The notes beneath the pieces are model-generated. The model saw only the letters and a program-made list of their open reading frames with translations, made no database searches and was not told the DNA's origin. Both the position numbers and the translations under genes were made by a program. A DNA stretch of 64,000 nt. It comes from a virus. The first letter of the stretch is position 1. Each line of letters opens with the position of its first letter. The stretch lies in IMG/VR virus record IMGVR_UViG_3300029845_000007; one strand, written 5' to 3'. Positions 1,886-52,300 of the stretch are shown piece by piece.

Positions 1886-3361
1886 TTAGAGTACACACTC
1901 CAACATGAACATCTTCTCTTGTCTGTCAACTTGCAGACCACGAGACATTTTAACTTCATATTGAGATTTATCAATATCCGTAGATATAGAATTGCTAGGA
2001 ACAGAACCCCAAGACGGTGGAATAGGAGTAAGACCTTTCAATACACCAACAAGATAAGACTGACCTTTCATACGTACCATACGAACATTACGATTTCCGT
2101 TATATACAGAATTGTCAATGAACATCAGTTTGTGAGATGTCATAGGCAAGCCAGTACGAGGATGAATAAGACCATTAGCTTTTGCTGTTTCAGCAATAGG
2201 TGATTTATCCAAGAATGGAAGATGAACACAAGTAACTGTATGTCCGTCAATAGTCTTATATTTACGGAAGTATTTACCATAAGTAAGACCACCACCTTCT
2301 TCACCAATCATCTTTTCTCCAAGTGGAGTAATGAATCCTTCTGACTTAACATCTTCACGAATAGCCATGTCGAAATCTTCGATACCACCTTTACCTGCAT
2401 ACAGAGTAATCTCCATAGAACCAGTATCGGTATCTTTATCAACTACATCACCAATAGTTCTTTTTAACTTGCTAAGAGGCAAGTATTCACCATAAGTATC
2501 GTAGTTAGATTCTTCTAGGATTTCAAACATTCCGGCAGTTTCAGGAATAGGTTGGTCATTATCCCAATCCTTCATATCAATAGTACCATTAACAGTACGA
2601 TTGTAACGAGATGTCCATAAGTCAATCTCATTAGAGATACGCATCTGAACATCGAACTGACGCATTTCTTCATTAATCCAACGAGTATCAGTACCACCGC
2701 CTTTTGTCTTGAAAGCATAACTAACAATAACATTACTAATGTTACCTGCAATTTCCTTGCTATAACGTTTGAATCCTAACTGAGATTTCATAACACCAGG
2801 ACCCATAACATTAGTTTTGTTACCCTTAGAATAAGATTCAGGAATAGACGGAGCTAACATACACCAATACTTACCTTTCTCAAAGTTAGCTGGGTCAATA
2901 TAAGCACTCTTATCTGGATTCTTTAGCTGCAAAGAATACAGATGTCCACCATGATTACCTGCACCGTGGTCACGCATTACACGAACAGTTGTCTTACCAT
3001 CAGGAGCAAGCAAACCATACTGTTCAATAATAAGACCAGTAGCAAACTCGACTTTAATAGGTTTACCACCAATACCAGGAGTAGTATCACTAGTGTCAGC
3101 CCAAACAATGTAATCATTGAATCTTTGACGACCCATTGTCTTCCAAGTCCACTCAACAGTAGTAATGTCACGAACACCAGCAGCACCTTGTCCTTCAGTA
3201 AGGAAAGTTAGCGGGAATCGGTCATCTTCCATACCATAAGTGTAAGTTAAGAAGTTGTTGATTTCCTCCGGTTTTTGAATCATTAAGGCAGCAAGAGATT
3301 GTTCATTAGAATAACCTCTGTCATCATATCTACCTCTTTCGACTTCTCTTAATCTGTACAT
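1886..3361 (-). CDS. putative major capsid protein
   Basis: 491-aa ORF in the canonical position downstream of terminase, portal and a scaffold-like gene. Size typical of crAss-like HK97-fold MCPs. No diagnostic motif can be checked by eye. Confidence 0.5.
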   Translation of the reverse strand: MYRLREVERGRYDDRGYSNEQSLAALMIQKPEEINNFLTYTYGMEDDRFPLTFLTEGQGAAGVRDITTVEWTWKTMGRQRFNDYIVWADTSDTTPGIGGKPIKVEFATGLIIEQYGLLAPDGKTTVRVMRDHGAGNHGGHLYSLQLKNPDKSAYIDPANFEKGKYWCMLAPSIPESYSKGNKTNVMGPGVMKSQLGFKRYSKEIAGNISNVIVSYAFKTKGGGTDTRWINEEMRQFDVQMRISNEIDLWTSRYNRTVNGTIDMKDWDNDQPIPETAGMFEILEESNYDTYGEYLPLSKLKRTIGDVVDKDTDTGSMEITLYAGKGGIEDFDMAIREDVKSEGFITPLGEKMIGEEGGGLTYGKYFRKYKTIDGHTVTCVHLPFLDKSPIAETAKANGLIHPRTGLPMTSHKLMFIDNSVYNGNRNVRMVRMKGQSYLVGVLKGLTPIPPSWGSVPSNSISTDIDKSQYEVKMSRGLQVDRQEKMFMLECVL

Positions 3362-3377
3362 ATTAGTTTTAATTTAG

Positions 3378-4712
3378 TTAGTTCAAGACTAGTTGGTCAT
3401 TATCAACTGTCTTAGAATTATTACCTTTACTATTGATAATAACAGTCCTTTTACCAGTAGTTTGCGCTGCGGCAGTTCTAATAGATAGAACTTTTTGTTT
3501 ATTAACAGCCATACCAACAAGACTAGCATAATCGCCACCAGTAAACCTTAGAAATGCTTTAAGTAAATCATCCTGCATACGAGCATCAGAATCAACTTTA
3601 GCTTCGTCTAACATATAAGCTGTATTACCTTCACTATCAACAGGAGTAGACACATACTTCAAGAAGTCTTTGCGACTAAGCATTACTTTCTTTCCGTCTT
3701 TGTTACATTGGATTTGTTCAGGAATACTATAACCTAATAGTTCGCCTTTGCTAATAGTCTTTTCTACATTATCCCAATATGCTTTTTCTTCAGCAGCAGC
3801 AGCAGCTTCTTTAGCTTCTACTTGTGCTTTCTGTTCAGCAAGTCGAGATTCATATATGCTATCAACAGCTTCTTTAGATTCAACAGCAGTATCATAAAGA
3901 ATACCAGCGTTCTTACAATAGTCAATAAATTTGTTTACGTCTCCTTTCTTACCGCTAAGTTTCCATTCTTCACGAATGAAAGTAGCTTGTTGTTCTTCGT
4001 TATCTTTACTAACAGTAATCTGACTTCTATCAGGTATTTCTACGAAGTCATCAAGAGTACCATTAAGTTTAAGATGATTAATAACTTGTTCTACTTGAGG
4101 ATAAGTTTCAAATAAGTTATTAATAGCAGCAGTTTGAGCTTCTTTAACTCTACTCTGAACTACTGTTTCAACATAAGCAGCAATGCCTTCTTCATTATCA
4201 TCAAATACGATAGGATTACCGTTTTCATCTTTAAAGTCAGAACCGAAACGAGTTTGTAATTGGTTAAGAACACTTGGTTCAGAACCATTTTGAGCGATAA
4301 GTTCAGCAAGTTCAGTAGCAGTACGGAATACAGTTCCGTCAGCAGCAATAGCATTACCTTCAGCATCAATAGTATAATCTACACCGTCTACATTAATAGT
4401 ATCACCTTCTGATAACTTAACTTCCCCCATAGAGGAGTCTTGTTGCTGATTATCCACTTGACCTTGCTGACCTTGATTTCCAGTATTACCATTACCGTTA
4501 TTAGCATTAGTATCAGGATTAGTATCAGGATTACCATTACCATTACCTTGTTGACCTTGTTGATCTTGTTGTCCAGCACCTTGTTGTCCCTGTCCGGTAG
4601 TATTACCGTTATTACCAGAGCCAGCACCTTGACCTGCACTACCAACAGTAGATATATCATCTATTTTAGTAGTACTTAAATCGAGAGAATCATTATTATT
4701 AAAAGTTGGCAT
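3378..4712 (-). CDS. scaffold-like / capsid-associated protein with disordered Q/G/N-rich N-terminus
   Basis: 444 aa. The N-terminal about 100 aa are low-complexity (QGQQGAG... repeats). The rest is helical with a coiled-coil segment (AEQKAQVEAKEAAAAAEEKA). Lies between portal and MCP, where scaffold proteins usually sit. Confidence 0.35.
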   Translation of the reverse strand: MPTFNNNDSLDLSTTKIDDISTVGSAGQGAGSGNNGNTTGQGQQGAGQQDQQGQQGNGNGNPDTNPDTNANNGNGNTGNQGQQGQVDNQQQDSSMGEVKLSEGDTINVDGVDYTIDAEGNAIAADGTVFRTATELAELIAQNGSEPSVLNQLQTRFGSDFKDENGNPIVFDDNEEGIAAYVETVVQSRVKEAQTAAINNLFETYPQVEQVINHLKLNGTLDDFVEIPDRSQITVSKDNEEQQATFIREEWKLSGKKGDVNKFIDYCKNAGILYDTAVESKEAVDSIYESRLAEQKAQVEAKEAAAAAEEKAYWDNVEKTISKGELLGYSIPEQIQCNKDGKKVMLSRKDFLKYVSTPVDSEGNTAYMLDEAKVDSDARMQDDLLKAFLRFTGGDYASLVGMAVNKQKVLSIRTAAAQTTGKRTVIINSKGNNSKTVDNDQLVLN

Positions 4713-5008
4713 AATAAATATGTTTTAATTATTACTTTCAAGTCAAATGTAGTCTAATAATATAAGAAATACAACTCTTGCTAGTTTGAATACCTTACTA
4801 TTAGGTTTAGAAAAGCCTGTATTTGAATTTAAGTAATATAAGAGTTAAATAGTATCAGCTAAAACGAACGTTCAACATAGGGCAAAAGAATAAGCCATTT
4901 TAAGGCTTGCTACGGCATTTTAATGCTTTATAATACAGTTCATCTCTTTAAGGGGGAAAATTCAATAGAAGTCAAAAAAATGCGGTCTACGTCAATCTTA
5001 CGGGTACG

Positions 5009-5035
5009 AAAAACCCTACGGAGACATCCGTAGGG
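5009..5035 (-). terminator. rho-independent terminator on the minus strand after the portal gene (CCCUACGG-augucu-CCGUAGGG-UUUUU)
   Basis: 8-bp GC-rich stem at 5014-5035 plus a plus-strand A5 (5009-5013) that gives U5 on the minus transcript. Followed by about 280 nt of non-coding DNA before the scaffold-like/MCP genes. Confidence 0.6.
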
Positions 5036-5083
5036 CACGTCTGAATCATAGAGAAAGGTATATAGCTAATTATAACTTAGTGT

Positions 5084-7516
5084 TCACTTCTTACTAGAAC
5101 TACTACTAGACTTTGGTTTATCATATTTGTTCTTATTCTCTTTAGCTATCTTTAGTTGATTATCTCTATCTAATGCAGCATTAATCATATCCAAGTCTTT
5201 AGCTCGTTTCTTCTCATTTAGTTCAGCTTGTTTTAAAGATAGTTCGGCAGAGTTATCTTGTGGTACAGTTTGTGCAGGTTGATTAGCTAGAGCAGCCATT
5301 GCAGCTTCTGTATCCATTCCTTTAGCAAGAAGGTCATAATAACCTTTGATTTCGGCAAGTCTAGCATCTTGTTCTCCTTTTGCAGCTATCTGTTCAAGAG
5401 CAGCTTTATTCTTAGCATCTTCTAACTGTTGGTCTAGTTGACGAAGAGATTCTTCGTTTTTCTGACGAATTTCTTGATAACGATTAATAGCTAGTTTAAG
5501 ACTAGATATATTCCCTGAAGTAATAGCTGCGACAGCTGACATTAAATCTCCATTCTGACTAGCATTGAAAGCCCACTCTTTGAGTTGCTCGAACTTCTCT
5601 GTTTCTCTATCAGAGTTCTTAGCTTTAATCACATACTGTCCGAGAGTATGATTCTCTACATTAAGAGAAATATATTGCTTTCTATCTGACTTATCATAAT
5701 AAGAAGTATCTAACCCGTCAATCCAAGCTAGCTTAGAATTATTTAAGTCTACGATATATTCATCTTCACGAAACTTATCAAACATATAATTGGTAATAAC
5801 AGTTCCCATTGAACTACGAATAATTGCTTCTTCCGTAGTACCTTTACCAGCACTAGTAGCTATTTGTCCATAACGTTGTGGTGTCATATCTACCATTTCA
5901 CGTGCACTGACTTTAATAGATTCAATAAGATTAGATATTTCAGTAATATAACCAGAGATATTAGCATCGAGCATTTTAATAGATTGCGCTTTAGTGCTAT
6001 TAATATCTTCTGCATCATCGTATGGAAATATACCTTCAGCAGCTATATTATATATAGCTTCTTCCGCATCTTCTCCAAATAAAGACTTAGCTGCAACAAG
6101 AATAAACATCTTATTTTTAGCTATCATCATTTCTCTATGATAAGAGAATATATTGATTAGTATTTGGAAAGGAGTAAGTATCTCTACAATGGAGAACTTT
6201 CCCATTTGAGGAAGAACTTCTTGAAGTCCACAATATTGCAATCTAGCATCATCGTCTATTTGGAAAGGAATAGGTTTAGCACCACCTGGGTATATACCGA
6301 AACGTTGTCCTCCAATACGATAACCTTCATATATCTGCGGTTTATATACAACAGATATTTCAATATGACCTAGTTCAGGATTAAATTCAAAGTCATCAGG
6401 AACAATCATTTCATCAACTAAACCTACTTCGTTAATATACTTTAGTATCTTAACTTGCGCATATCCTCTCCAATTAACATGCCATACTTCTAACAATTCT
6501 CCGTTCTTTAATCTTAAATCATAACCTTCTGACGGAAATATCTCACCAGTATCTTCTTTATAGTTCTTACACTTTTCAGGAAAATAATAAGTATAAGAAT
6601 TAAGACTAAGAGTACGAGTAGCTCCAACAGTACTAGGATTATAATACTTAGTTATAAATTCTAGTTGTTCCTCTGTTAATTCATCAGAGAATTGGTCTAT
6701 TACCTGATTGTAACTCATTAACATTCTACGAGCTACAATATCATATTTAGATACCATTTGTTCTCCATTAGGAACAGGATACATATCAGTAGTAGGAACA
6801 TATTCTTTAATTAGTTTCTTACCACGAACAGTATGGAAACTATAAACTTCCCCCGTAGTGATATAGTTGAAATACTCAACCGGAATTATTGTCTCATTAT
6901 TAAGAACATCATCAATAACTTCTAATAGTTGCTGTGCTTGTGAACTTATCTCATCTATATAATTATCAATAAAGTTCTTTTCAAACTCTTCTGCATCACC
7001 TGCAAGTTGTGCTGGGTCAACATCTTGTGTTGGTTGTCCTTGAGCTTCTAGTTGAGCGTTTTCAGCTTGTTGCTGTTGTACTCTCTTTTGAACTTCTTGT
7101 TGAAACGCTATCATAGCTCTCTTAACTATATCTTCTCGAATAGCTGCATCACGAGCCATAATAATTTCAGGATTATTAGCACCAACAATAAATTCATGCT
7201 GAGACTTAACATATTCTGATAAATAACGACGAACTACATCATTAATAATATCAAGATTTCTTAGAGTAGCAGGAAACCTCTTAAAGTTCTCCTTAGTAGC
7301 ATTATAAGGATTAAGTGTCTTACGATAAAACTCGTCAGGCATTTCTCCATGAAGTATTTCAAGAAGTTGTTCAGTCTTAGTTCTATCATTACAAGCTAGT
7401 CCGGCAGCAATACAATAATCTATTGTTCTGCCTGCCCAATACTCATCCTTTTCAGAATTAGGGATACGCTGTTTAGGCATATCCCCAAGTCTAACATTTA
7501 GCTTTGCATCAATCAT
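5084..7516 (-). CDS. putative portal protein
   Basis: 810-aa ORF immediately downstream of the putative TerL in the same operon, as in the crAss-like TerL-portal arrangement. Long helical C-terminal tail ending in a poly-Ser/Lys stretch. Inferred from synteny and size only. Confidence 0.5.
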   Translation of the reverse strand: MIDAKLNVRLGDMPKQRIPNSEKDEYWAGRTIDYCIAAGLACNDRTKTEQLLEILHGEMPDEFYRKTLNPYNATKENFKRFPATLRNLDIINDVVRRYLSEYVKSQHEFIVGANNPEIIMARDAAIREDIVKRAMIAFQQEVQKRVQQQQAENAQLEAQGQPTQDVDPAQLAGDAEEFEKNFIDNYIDEISSQAQQLLEVIDDVLNNETIIPVEYFNYITTGEVYSFHTVRGKKLIKEYVPTTDMYPVPNGEQMVSKYDIVARRMLMSYNQVIDQFSDELTEEQLEFITKYYNPSTVGATRTLSLNSYTYYFPEKCKNYKEDTGEIFPSEGYDLRLKNGELLEVWHVNWRGYAQVKILKYINEVGLVDEMIVPDDFEFNPELGHIEISVVYKPQIYEGYRIGGQRFGIYPGGAKPIPFQIDDDARLQYCGLQEVLPQMGKFSIVEILTPFQILINIFSYHREMMIAKNKMFILVAAKSLFGEDAEEAIYNIAAEGIFPYDDAEDINSTKAQSIKMLDANISGYITEISNLIESIKVSAREMVDMTPQRYGQIATSAGKGTTEEAIIRSSMGTVITNYMFDKFREDEYIVDLNNSKLAWIDGLDTSYYDKSDRKQYISLNVENHTLGQYVIKAKNSDRETEKFEQLKEWAFNASQNGDLMSAVAAITSGNISSLKLAINRYQEIRQKNEESLRQLDQQLEDAKNKAALEQIAAKGEQDARLAEIKGYYDLLAKGMDTEAAMAALANQPAQTVPQDNSAELSLKQAELNEKKRAKDLDMINAALDRDNQLKIAKENKNKYDKPKSSSSSSKK

Positions 7517-22036: not shown

Positions 22037-22402
22037 ATGGGATTAAGTTTCAAACTATCAGCGGTAAATGAGGAACAGAAAATTCCTCGTGAGAAAGTAA
22101 TAATGCAGATTGTTACTGGAACTATCGTTCTACATGATAACATGTATAAGTTTAAACCTAAAGATAGTGATGAATTTATTACGTTATCTGAACGTTCGTA
22201 CTCATGTAAAGGTTTTAAGACAATATATACTCGTGCATTAGATAATTATGGTAGACCTACTAAAATTGTTAGATGTACTGATGCTTATTGTGTTATGCCT
22301 AGCTGTTATATTCCATTTAAGATAGGATTACCTGTTAAGGGTTATATACTTAAATGTCGTGATAATATTGATAGATTCTTACTAAAATGCAATGAATTTT
22401 GA
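22037..22402 (+). CDS. hypothetical protein
   Basis: 121-aa ORF. Confidence 0.4.
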   Translation: MGLSFKLSAVNEEQKIPREKVIMQIVTGTIVLHDNMYKFKPKDSDEFITLSERSYSCKGFKTIYTRALDNYGRPTKIVRCTDAYCVMPSCYIPFKIGLPVKGYILKCRDNIDRFLLKCNEF

Positions 22403-25015
22403 AAAGTTTGATGATGCTAAGAAAGACGATAAAGTCTTAAATAGTTTTACTCGTGACCAAAAGATTGCTTATGAAAACCTAGTAGCTTTTATTGAGAAAG
22501 GTTATGTTGCAGGTGATTATAAACGTGCTCTTATTGGCTCGGCAGGTACAGGAAAAACATATATGATACGTGAAGTAATTAGACGATGCGGATTATCTAA
22601 ATCCGTTATTGGTCTTGCAGCTCCTACACATAAAGCTGCTCGTGTACTTCGTGCATCTACTGGATATTCTACGTCTACTGTGGCTAGTGATTTAGGTTTA
22701 AGACTTAATACTGATGTTACTGATTTTGATATTAATAATCCTCCTTTTGACCCATTAGCTGAAAAGAAGATTAAGCAATATAAGTTATATATTGTTGATG
22801 AAGCGTCTATGATTGGTATTAATCTTAAAACTCTTATAGAAAGAGAATGTGAACAGTTTGGTTGTATGCTTATTTATATGGGTAAATAGTTATTGCCCAG
22901 TTTAAACTCTTCTAATTGCTGGAAACTCGTGAAGGTAATAGTACTACAACATAAGTTGAAAAACTAAGTGTGAATGTTAGAAAAACTATTATTATATGAC
23001 AATCAGCAGCGAAGTCTCTAAATTATGTTCATTTACATAATAAGAGAAACGTTCATCGACTATCCCGTAAGGGAGTACAATTCTATGGAATTGGAAACGG
23101 AGAGAGTTGTATATTTGCAATTTACTCCTTATATTTACATAAATTTTTAAAATGTAAATATTATGAGCAAAAAAGAAACTCCAAAAATGTATGGTTTAGA
23201 ACATAAGTTAAATTCTAAGTGTGTTTATATTCATTTTATTAAATCTATTAATATTCCTATTTATATAGGAGAAGGAAATGTACAAAGAGCTTTTGATTTT
23301 ACTAATAGAAATAATAAATGGAAAGAACTAGTTAGCAATCTTAATGATGTTCATGTTGAAATAGTTGCTATTGATATTAATAAAGAAGAATGTGTAGAAA
23401 TAGAAAAGCAGCTAATAAAACTATATAAAGAAAGAGGATTTGAACTTGTTAATTGTAATAATGGAGGTAGTTGTATAGGAACTTTTGGAGAAGATAATTA
23501 TTTTTATAATAAACATTTGTTTGGTAAAGACAATGGTAATTATGGAAATAAATATTCTAAAAATCCTTTATCCATTGAAGTTATTCAGTTAGATATATTT
23601 GGAAATATTATTAAGAAGTGGAGTTCTGCACAAGAAGCAGAAGAAATAGGTGGATATATTGCTAGTTGTATTAATAGTTGTTGTAATGGTAAACGTCAAC
23701 TACACAATAATTATCAATGGATATTTGCTTATAATTATAATCCTAATAAATCTTATGAATATATTCCTAAAGGAACTTCTATGAGAATTTATTTAGCTAT
23801 TGGTATAAGAGATAATAAATCTTATATTCATGGTATATATAATTCTAGTAATGAACTTACTAATGAAGGATTTAATCCTAAACTAGTTCAACAAGTTGTT
23901 ACTGGTTATAAAAAGTCTCATAAAGGTTTTGCTTTTGTTGATTTCTTTAGATTAACTAAAGACCAACAAGAAAAATATAAAGAACAAGTTATTGCAAAAT
24001 TATATAGCTAAGATATAGTCAGACTATTATAGAAATATAGTAGGTTATGGATAACTATCAACTTCAACCAGTTAAAGAATCTCGTTCACGTTGTTTTGAT
24101 AATGTTAAGTTTTATACTCTTAGACAGATTGTTAGACAAGAAGAAGATAATCCTGTTAGTGAGTTATTAAAGATACTAAGAAAAGATATTGATAATAGGA
24201 GTTGGAAATTCCTAGAATATATCAATAAAAACAGATATGCTTTCGATTCAACTCAAACTAAAGGATATTATACTTGTGGTGCATACGAGTTTCAATCTCT
24301 TGTAATAGACGGATTTTATAATGAAGAGTTTACTAGAGATGTTGATACTTGTCGATTAATAACTTATACTAATAAATCTGTATCTGAATGGAATAAATTT
24401 ATTCGTAACAATATCATCGAAGGTAGTGATAAAGCAATTCTAACTCGTAATGATTTAGTAATGTCTTATAATACTTTTGTTGATGAGTTTAAAGATACTA
24501 TTATTGTAAATTCTGAAGATTATATAATACATGATATTAAGAATTTTACTAATAAAGATGAAATCTTTGGATTCAATGTTACGTTCATTCAAGTTAATGG
24601 TGGTAATAGAACTAAACCTTTATTTGTAGTAGACCATTCTAATTTAAATAATGTTATGCTTTATTATAAGTTAGGTGAAACTTATATTCAAAATGCAATT
24701 AATGCAGAGAAATATAATAGAAGTAAGCGTTGGAAGGAATACTATGACTTTAGAGAGAGGAACTTGTTACTAGTTAACTTATTAGATAGGTCTACTGGTA
24801 AGATTAAGTTTAGTCGTGACTTAGATTATGGATTTGCTCTTACAGCTAATAAAGCTCAAGGAAGTACTTATTTTGATGTATATGTAGATATAAATGATAT
24901 TGTATTTGATATGCGTACTGGTAATCCGTGGGGAAATATAGATGAAACTCTTCGTAGATTATATACTGCTTGTAGTAGATGCAAAAATCGTTTATATTTG
25001 TGTTACGGTAAATAA
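22392..25015 (+). CDS. Dda/RecD-like SF1B DNA helicase, interrupted by a group I intron (exon 1 22392-22883, exon 2 24050-25015; spliced product about 486 aa)
   Basis: Exon 1 has Walker A GSAGTGKT and Walker B LYIVDEASM and ends ...LIYMG. Exon 2 begins DNYQLQPV. Joined in frame they give LIYMGDNYQLQPV, the canonical motif III (GDxxQLxPV). Downstream motifs YTLRQIVRQ (IV) and TANKAQGST (V) are present. Confidence 0.75.
22884..24049 (+). mobile_element. group I self-splicing intron (1166 nt) with a GIY-YIG homing endonuclease ORF in a peripheral loop (P8 position)
   Basis: The 5' exon ends in U (GGU). An IGS-like GCCCA at 22895-22899 can pair with the exon UGGGU to form P1. A P-like box AATTGCTGGAAAC lies at 22914-22926. 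R element GACTA is at 23058-23062. S element AAGATATAGTC (exact consensus) is at 24010-24020. The terminal G at 24049 precedes exon 2. Confidence 0.75.
23163..24011 (+). CDS. GIY-YIG homing endonuclease (intron-encoded)
   Basis: N-terminal VYIHFIKSINIPIYIGEGNVQRAFDF is a GIY-x10-YIG module with the following Arg. The C-terminal half has NUMOD-like Gly/Lys-rich DNA-binding repeats (NGNYGNKYS, CCNGKRQLH). Its stop codon overlaps the intron S element. Confidence 0.8.
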   Translation: MSKKETPKMYGLEHKLNSKCVYIHFIKSINIPIYIGEGNVQRAFDFTNRNNKWKELVSNLNDVHVEIVAIDINKEECVEIEKQLIKLYKERGFELVNCNNGGSCIGTFGEDNYFYNKHLFGKDNGNYGNKYSKNPLSIEVIQLDIFGNIIKKWSSAQEAEEIGGYIASCINSCCNGKRQLHNNYQWIFAYNYNPNKSYEYIPKGTSMRIYLAIGIRDNKSYIHGIYNSSNELTNEGFNPKLVQQVVTGYKKSHKGFAFVDFFRLTKDQQEKYKEQVIAKLYS

Positions 25016-25028
25016 AAAGTATAAGTAT

Positions 25029-27299
25029 ATGAGTTCTATGTGTTATGATGTCGAAGTAACTAGAAATTACTTCTCGGTAGTATTTGTTGATTTACGTAGT
25101 TATCTTAAAACATTTTCTGATTGTGTTGATAATGAGGGAAAAGCTATTCCTATTATTGATAAACTTAGTGTTACAGAGATAAAGAAACGTTTAGAAACAA
25201 TACCTAAGAAACGTTTTGTTTTATATGAAGATGATGATAGTGATTTATTTAATCTATTATATTGGTTAATACAGAAGGCAGATTACTTCGGTTATAATAA
25301 TCGTAAGTACGACCGCTTAATGTTAAGTGCATTATTAATGTATTATAATCAATTTGATAAACCTAGTAAACTTATTACATTTCTATATGAAACATCACAG
25401 AGAGTTATTCGTAATTCTAATAATGATACTCTTTGGACTGATAACTTCACTTCTCTTATACTGCGTAATAACGTGGCATTTCGAGACTTGGATTTATTCC
25501 AAATATTTAGGCTAGACCATTTTCATAAAAGTCTCAAACAGACTTCTATTAATATTAAATGGTATAATCTGAAAGAGTATACTATGCCACCTATTGGTGA
25601 CTTAGATAGACATTATTACCATGAGCGACTTCCCGAAGCTAAAAGCATGACAGATAGAGAACTTAATATCCATTATCGTAATGTGTTTGAAAGATTTATA
25701 CCTAAAGAATATCTTCAAGAAATGGCTGATTATAATGACAATGATGTTTATATTGTTGCCGAACTAATTAGAATGAATCAAGAAGAAGTTCTTCTAAGGT
25801 ATCGTATTAGTGAAGAATATAAGGTAGATGTATTCTCTGCAAGTAGAAGTACGATAGCTGATAAAGTTATTGTTAAGCTATATAGTAAGTTTACTGGTCT
25901 GCATCCTAAAGCCTTCATTGATACTAAGACAATACGTAGGAAAATCGTAGTTTCCGAAATTTTGTCAGATAAAATCGCATTTTCCACGCCTGAATTGAAC
26001 GATATTTTGTCAGACATACGTTCGCTAACCCTACGTGGGGAAAAGAGCGAATTTGACAGGGAATTTACCTTCATGGGCACGTCATACACTATCGCAACAG
26101 GAGGTTTACACTCAAACGAGATTCCGAACATTTATCGTAGTTCTGCTGATTATTCAGGTGCTACTGATATTACTATTGGTAATCCTTATGATAGTAATGG
26201 CAATATTGGAGTTAGTACTTCTGATATATATATTTGTGATTTTGATATTAATTCAATGTATCCTAATATTATTAGAAGTCTTAAAGTATGTCAGAAACAT
26301 CTACTTCCTAAGGCATGGTTTCGTATAGCTGATACTATTGTCGATGAACGACTAGAACATAAACATTTATCCAAAGATAAATCTCTTGATAGTAAAGAGA
26401 GAGATAAACATGCTACTGCTGCTGCTTGTCTAAAGATTGTAGCAAATGCTGGTATATTTGGTAAAATGGGTAGTGAACAATCTTTCTTGTGTGATAAGAA
26501 AGCAATGTATCAAGTTACTATTAATGGGCAATTATTTCTACTAATGTTAATAGAGAAACTTGAACTTGCAGGCATTCATATAATAAGTGCTAATACTGAC
26601 GGTATTGTTTCTATAATACCAAAAAATAAGTTTGAATTATATTGTAATATTTGTCACGAATGGGAGAAAGTAGTTGGATTGACAGGTGAATTTACTCCAT
26701 ATACTAAGTATGTTACAGAAGGAGTAAATAGTTATCTTACTGTAAAACCTAATAATGGTAGAAAATTCAAAGGTAGAATGAATCCTAAGATGTTCTTAGA
26801 GGATTTATCTAAAGGATATAATTCTCCTATTGTAGCTAAATGTGTTACTGAATACTTTATTAACGGTACTCCTGTTATGGAAACTCTTCGTAATGCTAAA
26901 TCTATTCTTGATTTCTGTCGTACTCAAAATGTTAATCATAAGTATAGACTAGAGTTTACTCACGTTGTAGACGGAAAGATAAGAACAGATGTGGTGCAGA
27001 GGAATACAAGGTTTTACATCTCCTCTACGGGGGGAACCCTCATGAAGGTTGAGAGTATAGGCTGGAACGATAATGGTGAAGAACAAGTTAAAAAGAGTTC
27101 TTTATGTGCAGGTCAACGTGTTTCTATATGTAATACTGTTGATGATACTGATATATCTGAACTAAATGTTAATTACTTATATTATTATAATGAAGCTATG
27201 GCTATTATTGAACCAATAGAGCAAAGTCGTAATAATAAAGGTAAAGGTAAACGTTTAGTTAAGAAATACTATGGAATGAGAAATACTTTGTTTGATTGA
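25029..27299 (+). CDS. family-B DNA polymerase (start at ATG 25029; the track ORF start 24942 overlaps the helicase)
   Basis: Exo I YDVEVT (DxE) near the N-terminus. Motif A DFDINSMYPNII (Dx2SLYPS). Motif B-like KIVANAGIFGKMG. Motif C ISANTDGIV. Confidence 0.8.
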   Translation: MSSMCYDVEVTRNYFSVVFVDLRSYLKTFSDCVDNEGKAIPIIDKLSVTEIKKRLETIPKKRFVLYEDDDSDLFNLLYWLIQKADYFGYNNRKYDRLMLSALLMYYNQFDKPSKLITFLYETSQRVIRNSNNDTLWTDNFTSLILRNNVAFRDLDLFQIFRLDHFHKSLKQTSINIKWYNLKEYTMPPIGDLDRHYYHERLPEAKSMTDRELNIHYRNVFERFIPKEYLQEMADYNDNDVYIVAELIRMNQEEVLLRYRISEEYKVDVFSASRSTIADKVIVKLYSKFTGLHPKAFIDTKTIRRKIVVSEILSDKIAFSTPELNDILSDIRSLTLRGEKSEFDREFTFMGTSYTIATGGLHSNEIPNIYRSSADYSGATDITIGNPYDSNGNIGVSTSDIYICDFDINSMYPNIIRSLKVCQKHLLPKAWFRIADTIVDERLEHKHLSKDKSLDSKERDKHATAAACLKIVANAGIFGKMGSEQSFLCDKKAMYQVTINGQLFLLMLIEKLELAGIHIISANTDGIVSIIPKNKFELYCNICHEWEKVVGLTGEFTPYTKYVTEGVNSYLTVKPNNGRKFKGRMNPKMFLEDLSKGYNSPIVAKCVTEYFINGTPVMETLRNAKSILDFCRTQNVNHKYRLEFTHVVDGKIRTDVVQRNTRFYISSTGGTLMKVESIGWNDNGEEQVKKSSLCAGQRVSICNTVDDTDISELNVNYLYYYNEAMAIIEPIEQSRNNKGKGKRLVKKYYGMRNTLFD

Positions 27300-43334: not shown

Positions 43335-46300
43335 TTATTCTTCATCTTCATCAGTAATCATATTAGCAACAACTTGACCTAAACCACTAAACGGACTACT
43401 ACGTACTTTATAGTAACTATTATTAGCACCAAGTCTTTCATGTTTTATAATCTGATTAACTAATGGTACTTGTTTAAAGAAATTTACTACAAGTTTATTT
43501 TCATCTGAATAGCTTCCTGAATTATAATATAAATCATCAGGATTACCAGTAATAATATAGCTACAAAGTGCTCCTAATAATCTAAGATTATCTTGCGCAA
43601 TACTTAATGCAGCAACAGGTTGACTATATAGTTTCTTACCTTCATTAGCTAATCCCCACGGAGTATATTGAATAATTTCAGACATTAGACGGTCAGCACT
43701 ATATAAGATATAGTCAGCTACTTGTGTAGAATCATCATCGTCATCTAGCATTAATTTTCCTACTACAAATAGTGCTACTGCTTTAGTAATAGCTATCCAT
43801 TCACCTAAGCATCTACGAATATTGGCTTTATCATATTCAGGAAGAATGTTATAATAAGTAGTAAGATTAGCTACAAAATCTGCATAACCTTTAGCAATTC
43901 CTTGAAGAGTACGAACAGCTTGAAGTTCGTTACTATCATTAAGTTCGTAGTATTTCTTAAATGGCATTGCTATAAACTCACCTAAACTAACATAAGTTCC
44001 TTTACTAATAGATTCTCTAGTTTCATTATATATACCGTCAAAGTGACCTAAACGATAACCAAAACGTTTTTGGAATCCAGGAACTAAGTGTTTATGGAAC
44101 TGCATTAGTAAAGCTCCCCACCAAGATTGTTGTAATTGATTAGCACCAATCTTATCATAGATACCATGTATTTGATGATTAACTGATATAACCTTATTAC
44201 GGAAAGCTGCAATATCATTATTAGTAAGACCACTGTCAGGTTTAAGAATAGCAACACCATTTTTCAAGATAAGACTTTCTCTAAAAGAAGGATGATTCTC
44301 GAACTTAGTTCTTTCTTCTTTAGTATCTTCTTTATAGGTAGCTTTAAACTCTTCTCTTATCTCTTTAGGAACAGAGCGTAAGAAGTCAGTTATTATATCA
44401 GCTTTAAACTTAACATAACGTTCTTTCTCAATATATGATTCAAGTACTTTATCTCTGAATGTTTCATATTTAGTAACTAATTCAGGATTATTCTTACGAA
44501 GAACTTTAAGCAATGCTTCTTCTCTAAGTCCCATAGCAAACTGTTCAAATGACATTACTTTATTCTTACCATTAACAGTAACAACTCTATGAGAATGAAG
44601 CATAGCTAACAATGTAGCGTTCTGCATATAATGTTCACCTGCGGTTTGTTGGATAAACAACAGATTTTCTAATTTACCCATAGGATTGTTACCTTTACCA
44701 TAACGTTCTGTTATCATATCAGATTCAATAACATTGAATAATCTAATAATAGCATTAGTTTCGTTATTAGTAGTTTCATTATAAGCATCAGCTAAATAAC
44801 TACCTACATTCTGCATCCATTCGTTCTCACCTTTACGGAAGTCTTTGTATTTAAAGAATTGTCCGGCAGCCATTTCCATTTGTATCTGTGTCTTACCATA
44901 TAATACGTTGGCAATACCACCAGTAACGTTTAACATCATAAACTTACTAGATACCATATTACGCATAACACGAGATACTTTAGAACGAGTACCTTCATCC
45001 ATTTCAAATTCATTAAATACTAACTTACGAACTTGATTCTCAAAGTGCTTAACTATATTAGAATCATCACTTTTAGTTGTGCGTATTTCTTGTTTACCAG
45101 TAATTCTACTAAGTAATCTATTATCCATAAGTTTATCGTTAGGATTTCTCTTAATAATATCCATATTACGTAATTGATTACTAGTAATTTTAGCTAATCT
45201 AGCTATATCATTACGAGTATTAAAGTTATACATACTATCAATAAATGAATTAAGTCTTTCAAGAACATTAGGATTATTACGTTCTACATTTTCCTGTGCT
45301 CTTTGCTTACGTAACTCATTGTTCCTAGCTTGAGTTTCACGAACATAAGCTAGATATTCATCAGTAGTTTCACCTTCTTGTTTCTCACGAATAGGAAGAA
45401 GTTTAATCTCTGATAAACTATGTAACATAGGAGCATTACTAAATCTTTTATATAGATTAAGCTCTATATCAGATTTATTAGGAGTATCATACCAACCATG
45501 ACTGCGTTTAAAGTCTTGCCAATAATCAGTAAATCCTTGATGTGGTTGTTCAACAGCTTGATTAGGTAAATAACCACGATTAATATAAGCACGACTACGT
45601 TTATCTTTAACAAGACTATTAAGTAGATTATCTACTTCATTGTATAGTTGTTGCTGATAGTTATTCATTCCATAATATTTATCATTGCGATATTTATTAG
45701 TAGAAGGTTGTAACTTAACTTCATCATAGTTAGGATTCTTGTACTTGTCTTTAACTTTAGTTTCTAACCATTTATATTTAGGACTATATTCCATATTATT
45801 AGCTTCGTCCTTAACTATCATTTGTCTCCAAATAGCTAATGGTTCGTATTCTTTAGTAATAGGATTAAGCACATGATTCTCGTTATACCATTTATCAAAT
45901 ACTACTTTACCCATTTTGTTCATAGCCACATACATAGCTTCGTAGTATACAGTATTGATATAGCTTATATGCTCATCTAACCACTTTTGAGCTTGTTCTT
46001 CATTTGGCTTAACTCTACCAACAGCTGCTGCAAACATTTGCTCTTGATGTTTCTTTAAGTTAGCTATTTGCACTTCTGTAAACTTAGTACCGTCAATAAC
46101 ACCTGTTTCATCATACTTACCGTATGCCATAGTACGAACAAAACTATCAAAAGGATTGCCAGCACGAGTATCCATATAAGCTTTCTTTAACTCATCTAAG
46201 AACTCACCTTTTAACTTATAGTCAGTATTAGCTTTAAGCCATTCAGCTGATTCTCGATAAGTTTCAGATGTTTCAGGGTATTGAAGTCCTTCAATAGCTT

Positions 46301-49300
46301 GTTTATAACGAATAGTAAAAGCATCCTTAGGTCTGTTCTCTTTATACTTATTATTAAGTTGACGACGAGACAATAGATAATTATTAACTGCATTAGCTTC
46401 ATAATAATTCTCTTTGTAATTACCGTCAACATCAATAACAGCACGCATTTCAGTAAGTTCACTTTGAATCTCGTTAAGACGTCTTTCATTTTGAACAGTA
46501 AGAGTACTATAATCATTGTCAATCATTGTACTTAATATATCTCCTTCTTCATGCAATAGCTTCATTAACTTAACATAAGTTTCAGGGTATTTATTAAGTA
46601 ACTGGTTTGTATTGTAGTACTCTTGATACATCTCTTTAACGTATTCACGTTCTACATTATCTATTAAGAACTTCTCTAACTCATCTTTAGCTTTCTTATA
46701 TATTAAACCGTCTCGACCGTTCGGGTCTTCGATTTGTGCCAGTTTTACAGCCTCTTTTAGCGACCTTAATTTTTCAGTGAACGTTTCATTATACGGCAGC
46801 AAAAGATTGCCATTTTCGTCCAAAATATCGTTCAGAGACACGTCTATACCGTTGTTTTTTGCGTCCTCAATGATAGCCGATATTGCCGAAGTAAACGCTA
46901 TCTTTTTGTCTCTAGCTTCTATTTCACTAGCTCTTAACTGATTCATCATTTGTTTAAGAACTATTTGAACTATTGGTATATGTGTCTCTTGACTATCAGC
47001 TAACCAAAACTGGAAGAAGTTTTCATCTTCAAATGCTTCTGTAATGCTAAGCATATTAGATTGTACACGAGGGTCACTAGAAAGACTAGTAATGTAACTA
47101 TCGAAGTACATCTTAGTACTACGTTTAACTACATTATCTAAGTCTTTGATACGTTTGAACTTATCCTTAATCTGTTTAAGCATATCATTAGTTCTACGCA
47201 AACCTTCGATTTCTTCTTCTGTTTCACTTACAGTATAAGCCTCATCAATATTATAAGGTTGAATAGCTTCAATAATAGAATAGTCTTCTACAAATCTATT
47301 AATATCATCTAGGAACATCTCATAACGAGTACGTAATGTTTCATCCTTTAACATAAGGTCGAATAACTTCTTATTAGTTATACTCCATTTCTCTTGAACT
47401 ATCTTGTTACCATTTTCATCTAACTTATAAGTTCCGTCAGGATTAGTAACATAAGTAGTAAAGAAGTTGTGTATATCAAATAAGAAATCATCAATACGTC
47501 TATTAGTATAACCATTGATAATTCTCAACGCTTGTTCACGTAAGTTATCATTTAACTTAGTAGCTGTATTAGAACGTAAATCAATAGCTGTAAATGAACG
47601 GAAAGCATCGTTTAATGCAGCTTCTTCTACATTAGCATTACTACGTTCAACACTTTCAATAACACGAGATATATAATCATTTATCTCTTTATCATTATCT
47701 ATCAATGCAGATTCAAGTATATCTTCATTAATAAAGTTATCTTCTGTCTGAACACGAATAATGTTATTATTAGCAAATTTATCTAATCTAGCATTTTCTT
47801 TAACTACTTGAGTAATGGCATTACGTCTAGGGAATTGTAATTGACTAACACTATTAATAGTTACTTTCTTACTATACATATAGTCAGGAGTGAGACCAAC
47901 AGATTTAGTAGTTACACGACCTAAGTTAGTAACAATATAAACATTACCTTCCTTTTCGTATCTAAAATATCCACCAGCTCTAAAACCTGTATTATCTACA
48001 ACAGTTTGTAAAACAGGAACAAAACCAATACCATTAACATTAACATCTTCAATAGTTTGATTAATGCTAGCTTTAAGTTGAGCATAATAAGGAGATTCAG
48101 AATTATCTGATTTCTTCTTTCTAAGTTGAACTTCATTAGCTTCTAACTTAGTCATAGATGTTTGTAGTCTCTTGGCTGCAATATCAATGTTATTACGGTC
48201 ATTAATAAGTTTACGGATATTACCGTAATTCATATTAGGAGCTACAACAACATAATTAGTAATACCAACAGCTTCAAGAGATTCAATAGTATCTAGTATG
48301 ACCTGATTATCAGTAGCAGCAATAATGTATCTACGAGAAGTATCAACTTGTTGCTCCTTTATGGGGGAAGTTAAGACAGTACTATTAGGAAACGCTTCTT
48401 CTATTAATAAATTAGCACCAGCTTCAAATGCTTTAGGAAGAACTACAAACTTACGAATATCAGAGTTCATAGCTATATTAATAGAACTAATAAATGCAGG
48501 GTCATACTGATTAATAGAAATTTCTTCTAATATATCTAATGGAAGAAACATTCTATTATTATCAGGATTAACACTAATTTCTCCAATTTCATTCTGTTCT
48601 AATGGATTAGTAGGAAGCATATATACAACATCATTATCATATACTAGCTTATATAAACGTAGAACTTTATTATTATCATTAGTTTTAGCGTAATGACGAT
48701 ACTTACGATTATCTTCACTACCAGTAATCATTCTGCGTTCTTGTGCTTCTTTAAAACTAAGCATACCTACACCAAGTCTATTGAATACTATCTTATTAGA
48801 TTCTTTGTACTTCTTATTCTCAAATGTAAGTACATCAGGATTATTAGGATTAGTTCTAAAGAATAAGTCACGTAATTTTTCTATTGCCTTATCATCATTA
48901 CTAAGTCTTTCATAGGTTCCTGTTTCACTACCGTATTGAACCATACTATTAATGGCTTTGTCTGAATCATTAATAATATTAGTAGCTGTTGAAACTCCAT
49001 TATCAGAATCAATACCAGTATCCTGTCCATATAAAAGCTCAACAGGAATAATCTTACTAACTGTTCCGCCTTTAAACTTATAACCTTCTACTACCATAGA
49101 ATATCTTACTAAATCCATAGCTGTAAGTTTAACGAAAGGATTATTACTATGCCAAGCATTACGAAACATCTGATATTGAGATTCAGTAGATATAGTACTA
49201 TCAATAATAGATATTCTATCATAACTATTGCGACGACCTTTATACTCCACATTTAGATTTTTAAATAGATTATCATCCGAAGTATATCTTTGAATCAATA

Positions 49301-52300
49301 CTACTTTATTTGCAGGAGACAACTTCATAAATGCTTCTACATTCTTTTCAGACATATCAGACATATCGAAGCTACCTATTACATTAGTATAACCATATAA
49401 TCTAGCACGAGTATTCTGTTGACTGCTAATAAGATTCAAATTATAACTAGGAATAAACTCATTATCGCTTCTAGTTATAAATCTATTAGTATTAACAAAA
49501 TTAGATTGTGCTTGACTCATATTAATTATGAAACTCTCTAACTGTTGAATAGTTTGTAGATTACGAACATCGAACTTACTAACTAACTCACGGAACTGTG
49601 GAGTTTGAGTTTTGAATATTTCACTATCACGAATAATCTTTTCAGTAGCTATACAGCTATACTTCAGTTGATAATATAAAGAAGGATATGCTGATTCTGA
49701 ATCATCCTGATTAATATCGTTAATAGTATTGAAACTAATCTTAGGATAAATAGCATCTATAAGATATTTATTACCTTCTTCTGTAACAGCTTTAAGAACA
49801 GGATTACCTTTCTTAATACGAGCAATATTGTTATTCTTAATATCAGTAATACGATTAATTACATTATCAATTTCGTTAGCAGATTTACCAGCACCAAACT
49901 TATCACTAGTAATAACCATCATGTTAGTATTGATTTGGTCACCTATCTCTTTGAAATATTCAAATGCCCTTAATGCTTTAATCTGATATATAAGATTATC
50001 TGTATTATTATAGCTAGTACTTTCTACATCATCTTTAAGATGTTCTCTTAATTCAGTTACTCGTATTCCTTCTTCGAGTAATTCATTTTCATTGATAGTT
50101 ATTCCTCTAGCTTCAAGCATTGCTTTAACATCTTTAAGACGAGTTTTCTTAGTAATACTATTAGCTGGAATACCAACAGTCTTAGCCAATCTTATATACA
50201 TATCTCGTCTCAATCCTATAAGGGGATTAAATCCAGTTTCACCGAATACATTATCATTAGCATTTTGTCTAGCAATAAGTTCGGTTATTACAGGTTGATT
50301 AACGAATAAGATAGAAGTTTCATAGTTTGCACCACAATCAACAATAGACTTATATACATCGAAAGTATATAAATCAACATTAGGTACACCACCTTCTTTT
50401 ACACCGTCAAGAATAAGTGCAGTAGTTTCAGAAGAGTAAGGAGTAATTAAACGATTATCTATATTAAGATTATCGTAACTCCAACCTAACTGATTATGGT
50501 CTACCATTACTTCTTTTCCACTTCTAGTTACGTCTCTGAAACGTTTTCTTAATTTTGCTTGAGCGTCTTTGGCTTCTTTCTCTGTATTATATGTATATAC
50601 AAACCTAAAACCACCATGAGCACCGTCAATAATAGTCTTAGCTTTATTACCAATAGAGGCAAAGTTGTCACGATTAACAGAAATAGCTTTAAGACGTGCA
50701 CCGGACATATTAGCATCACGATACCAATTTTGAGCAATTACTGAATTAATATTACGATAAGTCTCTGACAAACCTTCAAAGATATTACTCTTTGCAGCTT
50801 TAATATCTTCAAAATTACTAGACGATAAGTTCTCACCAATAGATACTGGTAGATTCATTATATTAATAAATGTATCTACTATTTTATTGTTACGAGCATC
50901 ACGAGTATTTTGTTGAGCTACTGTTAATTGACTAAATTCTTCAAGAGACATAGCTCCTACTATTTCAGCTCTTGCTTGAATAGTTTGTTCTAATCTAGCT
51001 CTACGAGTTTCATCAGCATAATCAATAGCTAGTTGTTCAGCGTTATCTTTTACATTTTGATAAAATTCTCTTTGTTCATTAATAACAGATTGAATATTAC
51101 GATACTGTTGTGCAAACTTAGCAACATATTCATCATTAGCATATTCACTTTCATAAAAGTCCATCTTACTTACAATAGCGTCTACTCTTTCACCAAACTT
51201 TAATTCTTTTGATTTAAAAGTAATAGTAAGATTATCTTTTATTTCTCTTGGAAGCTCAGCCCATGTTTCATCTGTTTCAGCTATTAAATCTCTAACTTGG
51301 TCAGTTAAGAATTTATCATATTCTTCATTAGCTTTAAGAACAGTTTCTCTTGCAGCTTTACGAGCTTCTTTAAATTCTTCTTTAGTAAATTCAGAATTAG
51401 TAGCTTTACGAGTTTCTTTATCTATTAAAGAATTAACATATCCTATATATCTACGATAAGTAGATACTTCGTCTTCTCCTCCTATATATTCGACTTTATG
51501 AGGTTTACCATTTCTATCAAAATAAGCAGTATGATAAATACCATAGATACTATCAATATCAAAGTCAGCACCGGTCTGTAATACCCATTCATCAGGAACA
51601 ACAATAGTAGAACCTTGAGATTCATCTAATAAACCTACTACTTTCATTACTGCTACTGATTGCTTACCTTCTGTTGGAATACGATAACCAATCATAGTAT
51701 CTAGTCCAGCATTTTGTAAATCTTTAAGAGTAACTTCCTTAACTAGATTACCTTCTGCATCATAAGTATTATAAGCTTTTACCATCCATTTAGGTAACAA
51801 TATCTCTACTATTTGACTACCGTCTTTATGATACGTTAGTTTACGTCCAAGAGAATAACCGTGTTTCTCTTCTACTCTAGATTGCATCAAATCTCTTAAA
51901 TCACTACGACCTGATAGTTCGGTCATGCCAATATCTGAAACTTGACTAGCATGAAATCCTGGAAGTACTTGTCGAGTAACACGATTAGTAAATATACTAT
52001 TTACAATATTTTCTATCTTGCTACGAACTAGATTAGTCCAAGCAGGCATATAAGGCAATCCAGTTTCAGGATTTATTTCAGCATACTTACGATAATTACT
52101 GTCTAATCCTCTACGAGTTAACTCATCCTTAATAAGAGATATAAACTGATTATTATCTATCTTAGCTTGATTACCTTCATATACTACATTACCTTTAGCA
52201 TCAATCTCTACACCAATACGAGCAGCAGCATCTTTAAAACTATCTTGAATATTAGCAGTAAAGTTGTCAAAGAAATCTTTAATAAGAGATTGACCTTCGG

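Follow-up and report, generated by a model that had tools for sequence, protein, structure and literature searches.

It is textbook knowledge that group I introns carrying homing endonucleases occur in conserved motifs of the replication genes of phages. The td intron of phage T4 is a subgroup IA2 intron whose open reading frame (ORF), located in P6, encodes the GIY-YIG endonuclease I-TevI. Phage group I introns with homing endonucleases have been reviewed (PMC10136315); gut jumbo phages possess many of them, as supported by metatranscriptomic data (PMC12880540), and they have been reported in the Delta and Zeta groups of crAss-like phages (PMC7886860). The same 2021 survey stated that the crAss genomes of the alpha-gamma group 'lack mobile genetic element insertions' (PMC7886860). 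Here, we analyzed a 64,000-nucleotide stretch of viral DNA (IMG/VR record IMGVR_UViG_3300029845_000007, hereafter the window), in which the gene of a superfamily 1B (SF1B) Dda-like helicase is split by a 1166-nt insert located at positions 22884-24049 (plus strand, like all the window features described below unless stated otherwise). We consider it very probable that the insert is a mobile group I intron with a GIY-YIG endonuclease, and that its splicing gives a helicase of 485 amino acids. The first-pass annotation of this DNA, which had proposed the same element, regarded such introns as rare in phages; this was overstated, since phages commonly contain them, and reports of them exist for gut jumbo phages (PMC12880540) as well as for the Delta and Zeta groups of crAss-like phages (PMC7886860).

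The proposal can be appreciated by comparison with the intron-less alleles of the closest relatives, a check that the first-pass annotation had suggested. By blastn against the deposited phage genomes, the window is closest to the uncultured phage cr107_1 and to Bacteroides phage crAss002 and, judging from this similarity, its phage is a crAss-like member of the genus Jahgtovirus (Intestiviridae, Crassvirales). In each of these two phages, one uninterrupted coding sequence (CDS) of 1458 nt encodes the 'Dda-like helicase'. In the window, exon 1 (22392-22883; 164 codons, encompassing the Walker A/B region and ending with ...LIYMG) and exon 2 (24050-25015; 321 codons plus the stop, starting with DNYQLQPV of motif III and containing ...KAQGST) can be joined in frame to give 1458 nt encoding 485 amino acids. 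The joined exons align without any gap to the genes of cr107_1 (94.5% nucleotide and 96% amino-acid identity) and crAss002 (88.5% and 90%), exon 1 being collinear with nucleotides 1-492 and exon 2 with nucleotides 493-1458 of the intron-less alleles, and the joined protein is 96% identical to the RefSeq 'Dda-like helicase' YP_010110402. As the gene fits these intact genes without a gap once 22884-24049 is deleted, the interruption is a precise 1166-nt insertion in motif III.

The insertion point falls in motif III (GDxxQLxPV), after the GGT codon of its G and before the GAT codon of its D, inside the RecA domain 1A, and shifting the boundary by a single base breaks GGT|GAT. The last base of exon 1 (22883) is a T, the final base of the insert (24049) is a G, and the predicted ligated junction reads ...UAUAUGGGU|GAUAACUAUC, which can also be written TTATTTATATGGGT|GATAACTATCAACTTC. 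Exon 1 on its own matches the Pfam families AAA_30 (3.3e-16) and AAA_19 (7.5e-15), and exon 2 carries the UvrD_C_2 region. The joined protein matches AAA_30 (1.8e-22), AAA_19 (4.8e-17), PIF1 (4.7e-6) and UvrD_C_2 (6.9e-5), i.e. more strongly than each half does (from 3.3e-16 to 1.8e-22 in the case of AAA_30), and all the marks of an SF1B helicase, namely the AAA_30/AAA_19 core, motif III and UvrD_C_2, are found in this one polypeptide. The exon and intron coordinates, the 1166-nt length and the restoration of GDxxQLxPV upon joining, all of which had been proposed in the first-pass annotation, hold by direct reading and by the ungapped fit to both relatives, and the group I hallmarks that it had listed (the terminal U of the 5' exon, the GCCCA guide, the P box, the R element GACTA, the S element and the terminal G) all lie where it had placed them.

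The second line of evidence concerns the insert itself. An Rfam scan, also suggested in the first-pass annotation, matched the family Intron_gpI (RF00028) when restricted to 22860-23170: the match covers 22907-23104 with 48.4 bits and an E-value of 1.5e-11, and corresponds to model positions 50-157, from the P3 5' strand through the P3 3' strand. The coverage of the model is partial because an ORF inserted in P8 separates its 3' third. The full model (positions 1-253) is covered by a related intron devoid of ORF, which we found at 4691-5076 in the metagenome contig L021 (35.5 bits, E-value 1.6e-7). No Rfam family other than that of the group I introns gave a significant E-value.

The predicted ribozyme comprises about 320 nt of non-coding sequence distributed around the ORF. 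The intron (22884-24049) begins with AAAUAG and ends with ...GGUUAUG, the omega-G being 24049. The 5' strand of P1 (22879-22885; RNAalifold helix columns 4-10/18-24) consists of the exon UGGGU followed by the intron AA, and pairs as UGGGU/GCCCA with the internal guide sequence UUAUU-GCCCA (UUAUUGCCCA; 22890-22899, with GCCCA at 22895-22899), thereby placing a U.G wobble (U22883.G22895) at the 5' splice site. P2 is absent, the gap between P1 and P3 being 7 nt. The 5' core of the ribozyme (22907-23104) coincides with the RF00028 match, and its helices were predicted by RNAalifold with compensatory changes: P3 (22907-22912/23099-23104), P4 (22917-22922/23003-23008), P5 (22927-22931/22995-22999) with its P5a/b extension (22934-22993), and P6/P6a (23009-23052). 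They are followed by the 5' strand of P7, GACUA (23058-23062), which pairs with UAGUC at 24016-24020. The 33 nt inserted between P7 and the P3 3' strand fold into two hairpins, P7.1 (UCCC-GUAA-GGGA, 23063-23074) and P7.2 (23078-23093, with AAUUC-UAUG-GAAUU at 23079-23092), and by this P7.1/P7.2 pair the predicted structure is of the subgroup-IA type.

The conserved elements could be read directly. They are the P element AATTGCTGGAAAC (22914-22926), the R element GTTCATCGACTA (23051-23062, including GACTA), and the S element AAGATATAGTC (AAGAUAUAGUC; 24010-24020), which has the exact consensus, corresponds to J8/7 plus the P7 3' strand UAGUC, and is invariant in all 13 related introns. The 5' strand of P8 (AGUUGUAUAUUUGCAAU, 23105-23121) pairs with 23991-24009, leaving the ORF in the P8 loop, and the P8 3' strand also encodes the end of the endonuclease (IAKLYS) and the first base of its stop codon. 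The P9 hairpin, CUAUUAUA-GAAA-UAUAGUAG (24024-24043), was predicted by RNAalifold and has a GNRA loop. The minimum free energy fold of the ORF-less mini-intron contains P1, P3-P6, P7.1, P7.2, P8 and P9. Together, these features correspond to a catalytic core P3-P9 with P/Q/R/S elements and the P3/P7 pseudoknot, as deduced from the sequence.

Third, the predicted helices covary among related introns. We assembled 11 introns as pseudo-molecules, in which the 5' and 3' ribozyme parts were bordered by 8 nt of exon 1 and of exon 2, respectively, and joined through P8 reduced to 8+8 nt, the cuts lying at a constant distance from conserved anchors. These molecules were aligned with MAFFT by sequence only. 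RNAalifold recovered P1, P3, P4, P5/5a/5b, P6/6a, P7.1, P7.2, P8 and P9, with compensatory double changes in 49 of the 82 pairs. When P7 was added as a pseudoknot (87 pairs), 96.5% of the 955 cells were standard pairs, as compared with 81.5 ± 0.8% in shuffled controls and 35-46% when the partners were slid by 1-3 columns, and on each of five covariation measures the observed value was reached by none of 500 shuffles. P3, P5a/b, P6a, P7.2, P8 and P9 each have 5-6 double-change pairs: such changes occur in 6/7 pairs of the closing 7 bp of P8 (98.7% of the cells paired), 6/8 pairs of P9 (97.7% of the cells paired) and 5/5 pairs of P7.2. They also occur in 2/4 pairs of P7.1, and P1 shows compensatory changes in 4/7 pairs. 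The splice-site U.G is kept in ten of the 11 aligned introns, and the eleventh is a row whose exon end is misaligned.

Fourth, the guide sequence tracks the exons. In the window, the guide is complementary to the ligated junction over its ten positions, its 3' half pairing with exon 1 (P1) and its 5' half with exon 2 (P10, formed by UUAUU and the exon-2 GAUAA at 24050-24054). Using rows anchored on the splice sites and allowing G.U pairs, we examined the 10-nt guide located directly 5' of P3 in 13 related introns, and found that it fits its own ligated junction at 10/10 positions in ten of them. The two strands of P1 shift together, from UGGGU/GCCCA to UCGGU/GCCGA, and P10 exists in five versions (GAUAA/UUAUU, GAUAG/CUAUU, GAUGC/GCAUU, GAUUC/GAAUU and GAUGA/UCAUU). 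The introns inserted at other sites possess wholly different guides, each matching its own exons. The 5' exon ends with a U in 13/13 introns, and the intron ends with a G in 12/13. Taken with the Rfam match and the covariation, this behavior of the guide supports the assignment to group I made in the first-pass annotation.

These data bear on a different explanation, in which a free-standing GIY-YIG gene split the helicase into halves of 165 and 322 amino acids that reassemble without RNA splicing. There is a precedent for such genes in pieces, the nrdA gene of Aeromonas phage Aeh1, which is split by mobE. In the window, the exon-1 ORF (22392-22889, 165 amino acids) terminates with ...LIYMGK*, two codons inside the insert and past the G codon that ends at 22883; the ORF 24047-25015 (322 amino acids) begins with M-DNYQLQPV, its ATG (24047-24049) being in frame with exon 2; and three separate ORFs are called in all the public contigs. 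However, the approximately 320 nt of non-coding sequence would then form a conserved and covarying group I ribozyme for nothing, an exon-tracking guide would be purposeless without splicing, and the break falls inside motif III, in the RecA domain 1A. Moreover, the junction start codon is missing in six of the 13 related introns, so that exon 2 with its motif III could not be translated there without splicing, and the ATG of the window can be regarded as incidental. We thus consider a split gene of this kind to be very improbable, and retain the group I intron.

Fifth, the distribution of the intron is that of a mobile element. The interrupted allele occurs in at least six independent assemblies of close relatives and is absent from cr107_1 and crAss002. 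Independent metagenome contigs contain an insert of 1165-1167 nt at this very site, and, in the contigs retrieved for eight endonuclease homologs, phages with an endonuclease only 45-51% identical to that of the window have their helicase split at this G|D position too. In the comparison with the close-relative assemblies, the ribozyme is 98.6-98.9% identical and the exons 88-97%; in the comparison with the loci L012 and L014, the corresponding values are 88-92% for the ribozyme, 81-85% for the endonuclease gene and 67-76% for the exons. As the intron is more conserved than its exons, it would have spread laterally rather than by strict co-descent. The ribozyme core is also 86-89% identical at the DNA level in Rudgehvirus jaberico, crAssphage ctcc615 and one fecal contig, and the P3-P7 core is 69-77% identical in phiKZ-like, AR9/PBS1, N4-like Vibrio and other phages; the match in AR9 (about 69% identical) falls within a CDS that its depositors annotated as joined (spliced). 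Together, the presence/absence of the intron, its excess conservation and the sister sites indicate homing, as far as sequences can tell.

The P8 loop harbors an ORF of 849 nt (23163-24011), which has its own frame and its own start and encodes 282 amino acids; its TAA stop (24009-24011) overlaps the S element, as the first-pass annotation had noticed. The product comprises a GIY-YIG catalytic domain (approximately residues 18-100), a low-confidence linker and NUMOD-like/HTH DNA-binding modules, and the catalytic domain is modeled with the GIY-YIG alpha/beta fold, with which Foldseek agrees, though with weak E-values. The earlier description of this protein as GIY-x10-YIG/NUMOD was thus right about the fold and inexact about the motif, which is CVY-x11-YIG (Y22...Y34-I-G36), and the Pfam matches are below threshold. 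The residues Y22, Y34, G36, R42, E81 and N97 do not vary among 35-36 homologs and follow the GIY-YIG catalytic order; from their order and spacing, we take them to be equivalent to Y6/Y17/R27/E75/N90 of I-TevI. The Pfam I-HmuI_NUMOD-like model scores below its cutoff on the window protein (19.1 versus 27 bits, E-value 9.5e-4) and matches 31 of 35 family members, and the PHROGs matches are confined to the DNA-binding part. The ORF is intact in 37 homologs, located mostly on crAss-sized metagenome contigs, and its closest homologs among the deposited phage genomes reach only 32-36% identity. These characteristics are those of a divergent GIY-YIG member.

The frame and position of this ORF, together with the Rfam results, also speak to the possibility that the insert might be an intein, a group II intron or an IStron-like transposon. 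Nothing specific favors any of these, apart from the observation that L012 seems to bear an intein elsewhere in the same gene. An intein is contradicted by the in-frame stops right after the 5' junction and by the independent frame and start of the ORF, a group II intron by the significant Rfam match to group I only, and a transposon by the absence of any transposase found and of paralogous copies in the window. On these sequence features, this class of alternatives is effectively refuted.

Several points nevertheless weigh against our interpretation. We infer splicing, as well as the activity and the target of the endonuclease, from the sequence. The Rfam score of 48.4 bits is 1.6 bits short of the gathering score of 50 bits, which is an operational criterion and not a biological one. 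In addition, Rfam returned no match for the whole 2.6-kb interval (E-value up to 1) or for the whole window at the gathering thresholds; this silence is explained by the 849-nt ORF in P8, which defeats the filters, the 311-nt sub-scan alone having given the match. P4 and P7 pair in every sequence yet are invariant, and hence are uninformative for covariation. On the window alone, the guide match is only modestly unlikely, being reached in 232 of 20000 shuffles (1.2%), and we therefore place the weight on the comparative co-variation. The in-frame ATG directly before exon 2 would permit the production of a separate C-terminal half from the window allele. With regard to the endonuclease, the Pfam GIY-YIG model (PF01541) is below its cutoff (15.7 versus 22.6 bits, E-value 0.018, residues 22-90 being aligned onto profile positions 3-74 of 78), an E-value of 1 or less being reached by five of 35 family members, and searches of the PDB sequences with the single sequence or a 36-sequence profile gave no meaningful match.

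Some of these points, the inferred splicing and the Rfam score slightly under the gathering score, would also suit a decayed intron, i.e. a relic that no longer splices and has left the helicase as a pseudogene, other phage helicases supplying its function. A further observation of this sort was made in L020 (ENA ERZ28637838 scaffold_204, about 3930-3950, at the contig end), where an A, not a G, precedes exon 2 (...AUUACA|GAUUCAU) if the helicase frame is kept, the use of the next G as omega-G leading to a frameshifted ligated mRNA. The L020 junction could be due to degeneration of the intron, to an error of assembly or to the use of a non-standard 3' splice site. In the window, by contrast, the P, R and S elements, the omega-G and the splice-site U.G are all intact, and so are the exons, which are under purifying selection and encode a protein 96% identical to that of cr107_1. 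The helices have been kept by compensatory changes between phages sharing only 67-76% identity in their exons, the 37 homologs of the endonuclease retain an intact ORF, and the allele recurs in many samples. Decay of the intron is consequently hard to reconcile with most of the data, and we give it little credence as compared with a functional group I intron.

We propose the following scenario for this intron. A single pre-mRNA would be transcribed across both exons and the intron, which would fold into a subgroup-IA-type ribozyme with P1, P3-P9, P7.1/P7.2 and a P5 extension, and without P2. The guide UUAUUGCCCA would align the exon ends, first through P1, with its U.G at the 5' splice site, and then through P10. 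Two guanosine-dependent transesterifications would liberate the intron, ending with the omega-G 24049, and ligate the exons, thereby generating the mRNA for the intact 485-amino-acid helicase. The free-standing endonuclease encoded in the P8 loop presumably cuts the intron-less helicase alleles of co-infecting relatives near motif III, and repair from the intron-bearing copy would spread the intron (homing).

More tentatively, it is possible that this intron is one member of a lineage of introns with endonucleases that is restricted to gut Crassvirales and is actively homing. Such a lineage would occupy at least three sites (motif III of the Dda-like helicase, its motif V and a second helicase gene) and, when crAss-like phages co-infect, might serve as a factor of marker exclusion or of competition between them; we hold this broader proposal with less than even confidence. 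The lineage would have spread by re-programming its guide and by swapping or losing its endonuclease, and the role in competition is suggested by the presence or absence of the intron among Jahgtovirus strains that are about 95% identical. This competition-factor reading would lend itself to a direct test with crAss002, an intron-less relative that can be cultivated. More generally, since this phage, grown on Bacteroides xylanisolvens, provides an intron-less recipient in culture, the locus offers a tractable system for the study of intron homing and of phage-phage competition in the human gut virome. Furthermore, the 13 introns at three sites with exon-tracking guides constitute a compact dataset on the retargeting of homing introns, and our analysis corrects the annotation of public crAss-like records, which list the helicase as two or three unrelated ORFs.

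Observations on the related loci extend this picture. The L021 contig (Logan SRR31805494) has two introns in one Dda-like helicase gene: intron 1 (2671-3904), in motif III, contains an endonuclease gene, and the ORF-less intron 2 (4691-5076, 386 nt) lies in motif V (HKS|QGST), at the same site as the intron of ctcc615. In ctcc615 (MH552500, L004 3475-4534), the 'AAA domain protein' (438 amino acids) is a helicase truncated by the motif V group I intron. Its true last exon, which is unannotated, is 4535-4690 (51 codons, QGSTFDTSFVDVND...LYLKYGK*, i.e. QGSTF...KYGK*). The ctcc615 CDS annotated as 'restriction endonuclease PacI' was considered as helicase exon 2 and rejected, as it is a separate gene in another frame. 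In Rudgehvirus jaberico (NC_091965, L003 2381-4720), it is another 'DNA helicase' gene, located downstream of that of DNA polymerase B, that is annotated as two CDS around a 'GIY endonuclease', and the 879-nt interval between them is a sister group I intron, with a core 88.9% identical and its own matching guide. In L012 (1181-2728; Logan SRR22514078 contig, 91,953 bp), and also in L013, the helicase exon-1 product has 515 amino acids instead of about 165. The L012 product shows weak Pfam matches to Hom_end/LAGLIDADG_3 beside AAA_19/AAA_30, and its exon 1 therefore probably contains an intein, in addition to the motif III intron of the same gene. In L015 (Logan ERR10200971 contig), the 427-amino-acid gene downstream of the helicase carries at its end another exact copy of the P element (AATTGCTGGAAA, 6844-6855), which suggests a further intron of this family in that next gene, where the locus stops.

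Other observations concern the window itself. The first 24 nt of exon 2 (24050-24073) differ from cr107_1 at seven positions, mostly synonymous, as compared with about 5% overall, and the next approximately 400 nt of exon 2 are 97-100% identical to cr107_1; judging from these sequences, the divergence could represent a co-conversion tract or a divergence of the endonuclease target. A second copy of the S-element 11-mer AAGATATAGTC at 43705-43715 was considered as a possible second intron and rejected as a chance match: it lies on the strand opposite to a 4239-amino-acid ORF (43335-56054, minus strand), and no P or R element was found near it. The P-element matches with up to two mismatches are at the chance level in the window (5 versus 2.5 expected), which contains no paralog of the ribozyme or the endonuclease. 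Downstream of the helicase, the longest ORF of the DNA polymerase (24942-27299, 785 amino acids) starts within the helicase 3' end. The polymerases of cr107_1 and crAss002 (731 and 753 amino acids, respectively) start past the helicase stop, and the true start of the window polymerase is probably an ATG near 25030. No tRNA gene was found across the whole window.

As regards novelty, the deposited records of the sister introns contain no intron annotation, the Rudgehvirus paper does not describe the split helicase, and a literature search on Crassvirales with GIY-YIG found nothing relevant. The element is of an ordinary mobile kind and reveals no new mechanism. Its novelty is mild, and consists in the fact that Intestiviridae, namely the phages of the window, Rudgehvirus jaberico and ctcc615, carry such group I introns despite the reported lack of mobile insertions in this alpha-gamma group.

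Comparison with the known systems places the window intron as follows. As compared with the T4 td/I-TevI pair, its ORF is located in the P8 loop, it has no P2, and its host gene encodes a Dda-like helicase instead of a thymidylate synthase; its endonuclease is 18% identical to I-TevI, with a CVY-x11-YIG motif and NUMOD-like modules of the I-HmuI type. The AR9/PBS1 and phiKZ-like introns share the P3-P7 core (69-77% identical), but they reside in genes for a prohead protease and RNA polymerase beta, in unrelated phage lineages, and their endonucleases are different or absent. The introns of the crAss-like Delta and Zeta groups (PMC7886860) resemble that of the window in occurring in the same virus order and in core replication or structural genes, and in having been found through their endonuclease domains; the genes concerned (MCP, PolB, primase as well as ATP_43b) do not include the helicase motif III site. 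Finally, the sister introns of Rudgehvirus, ctcc615 and L021 have a ribozyme core 86-89% identical, the same P/R/S elements and the same position of the ORF in the P8 loop, the motif V copy of L021 being devoid of ORF. They differ from the window intron by their insertion sites, with guides re-programmed accordingly, and by their endonucleases, that of Rudgehvirus being 36% identical to the window's and that of ctcc615 being a different GIY-YIG protein barely related to it.

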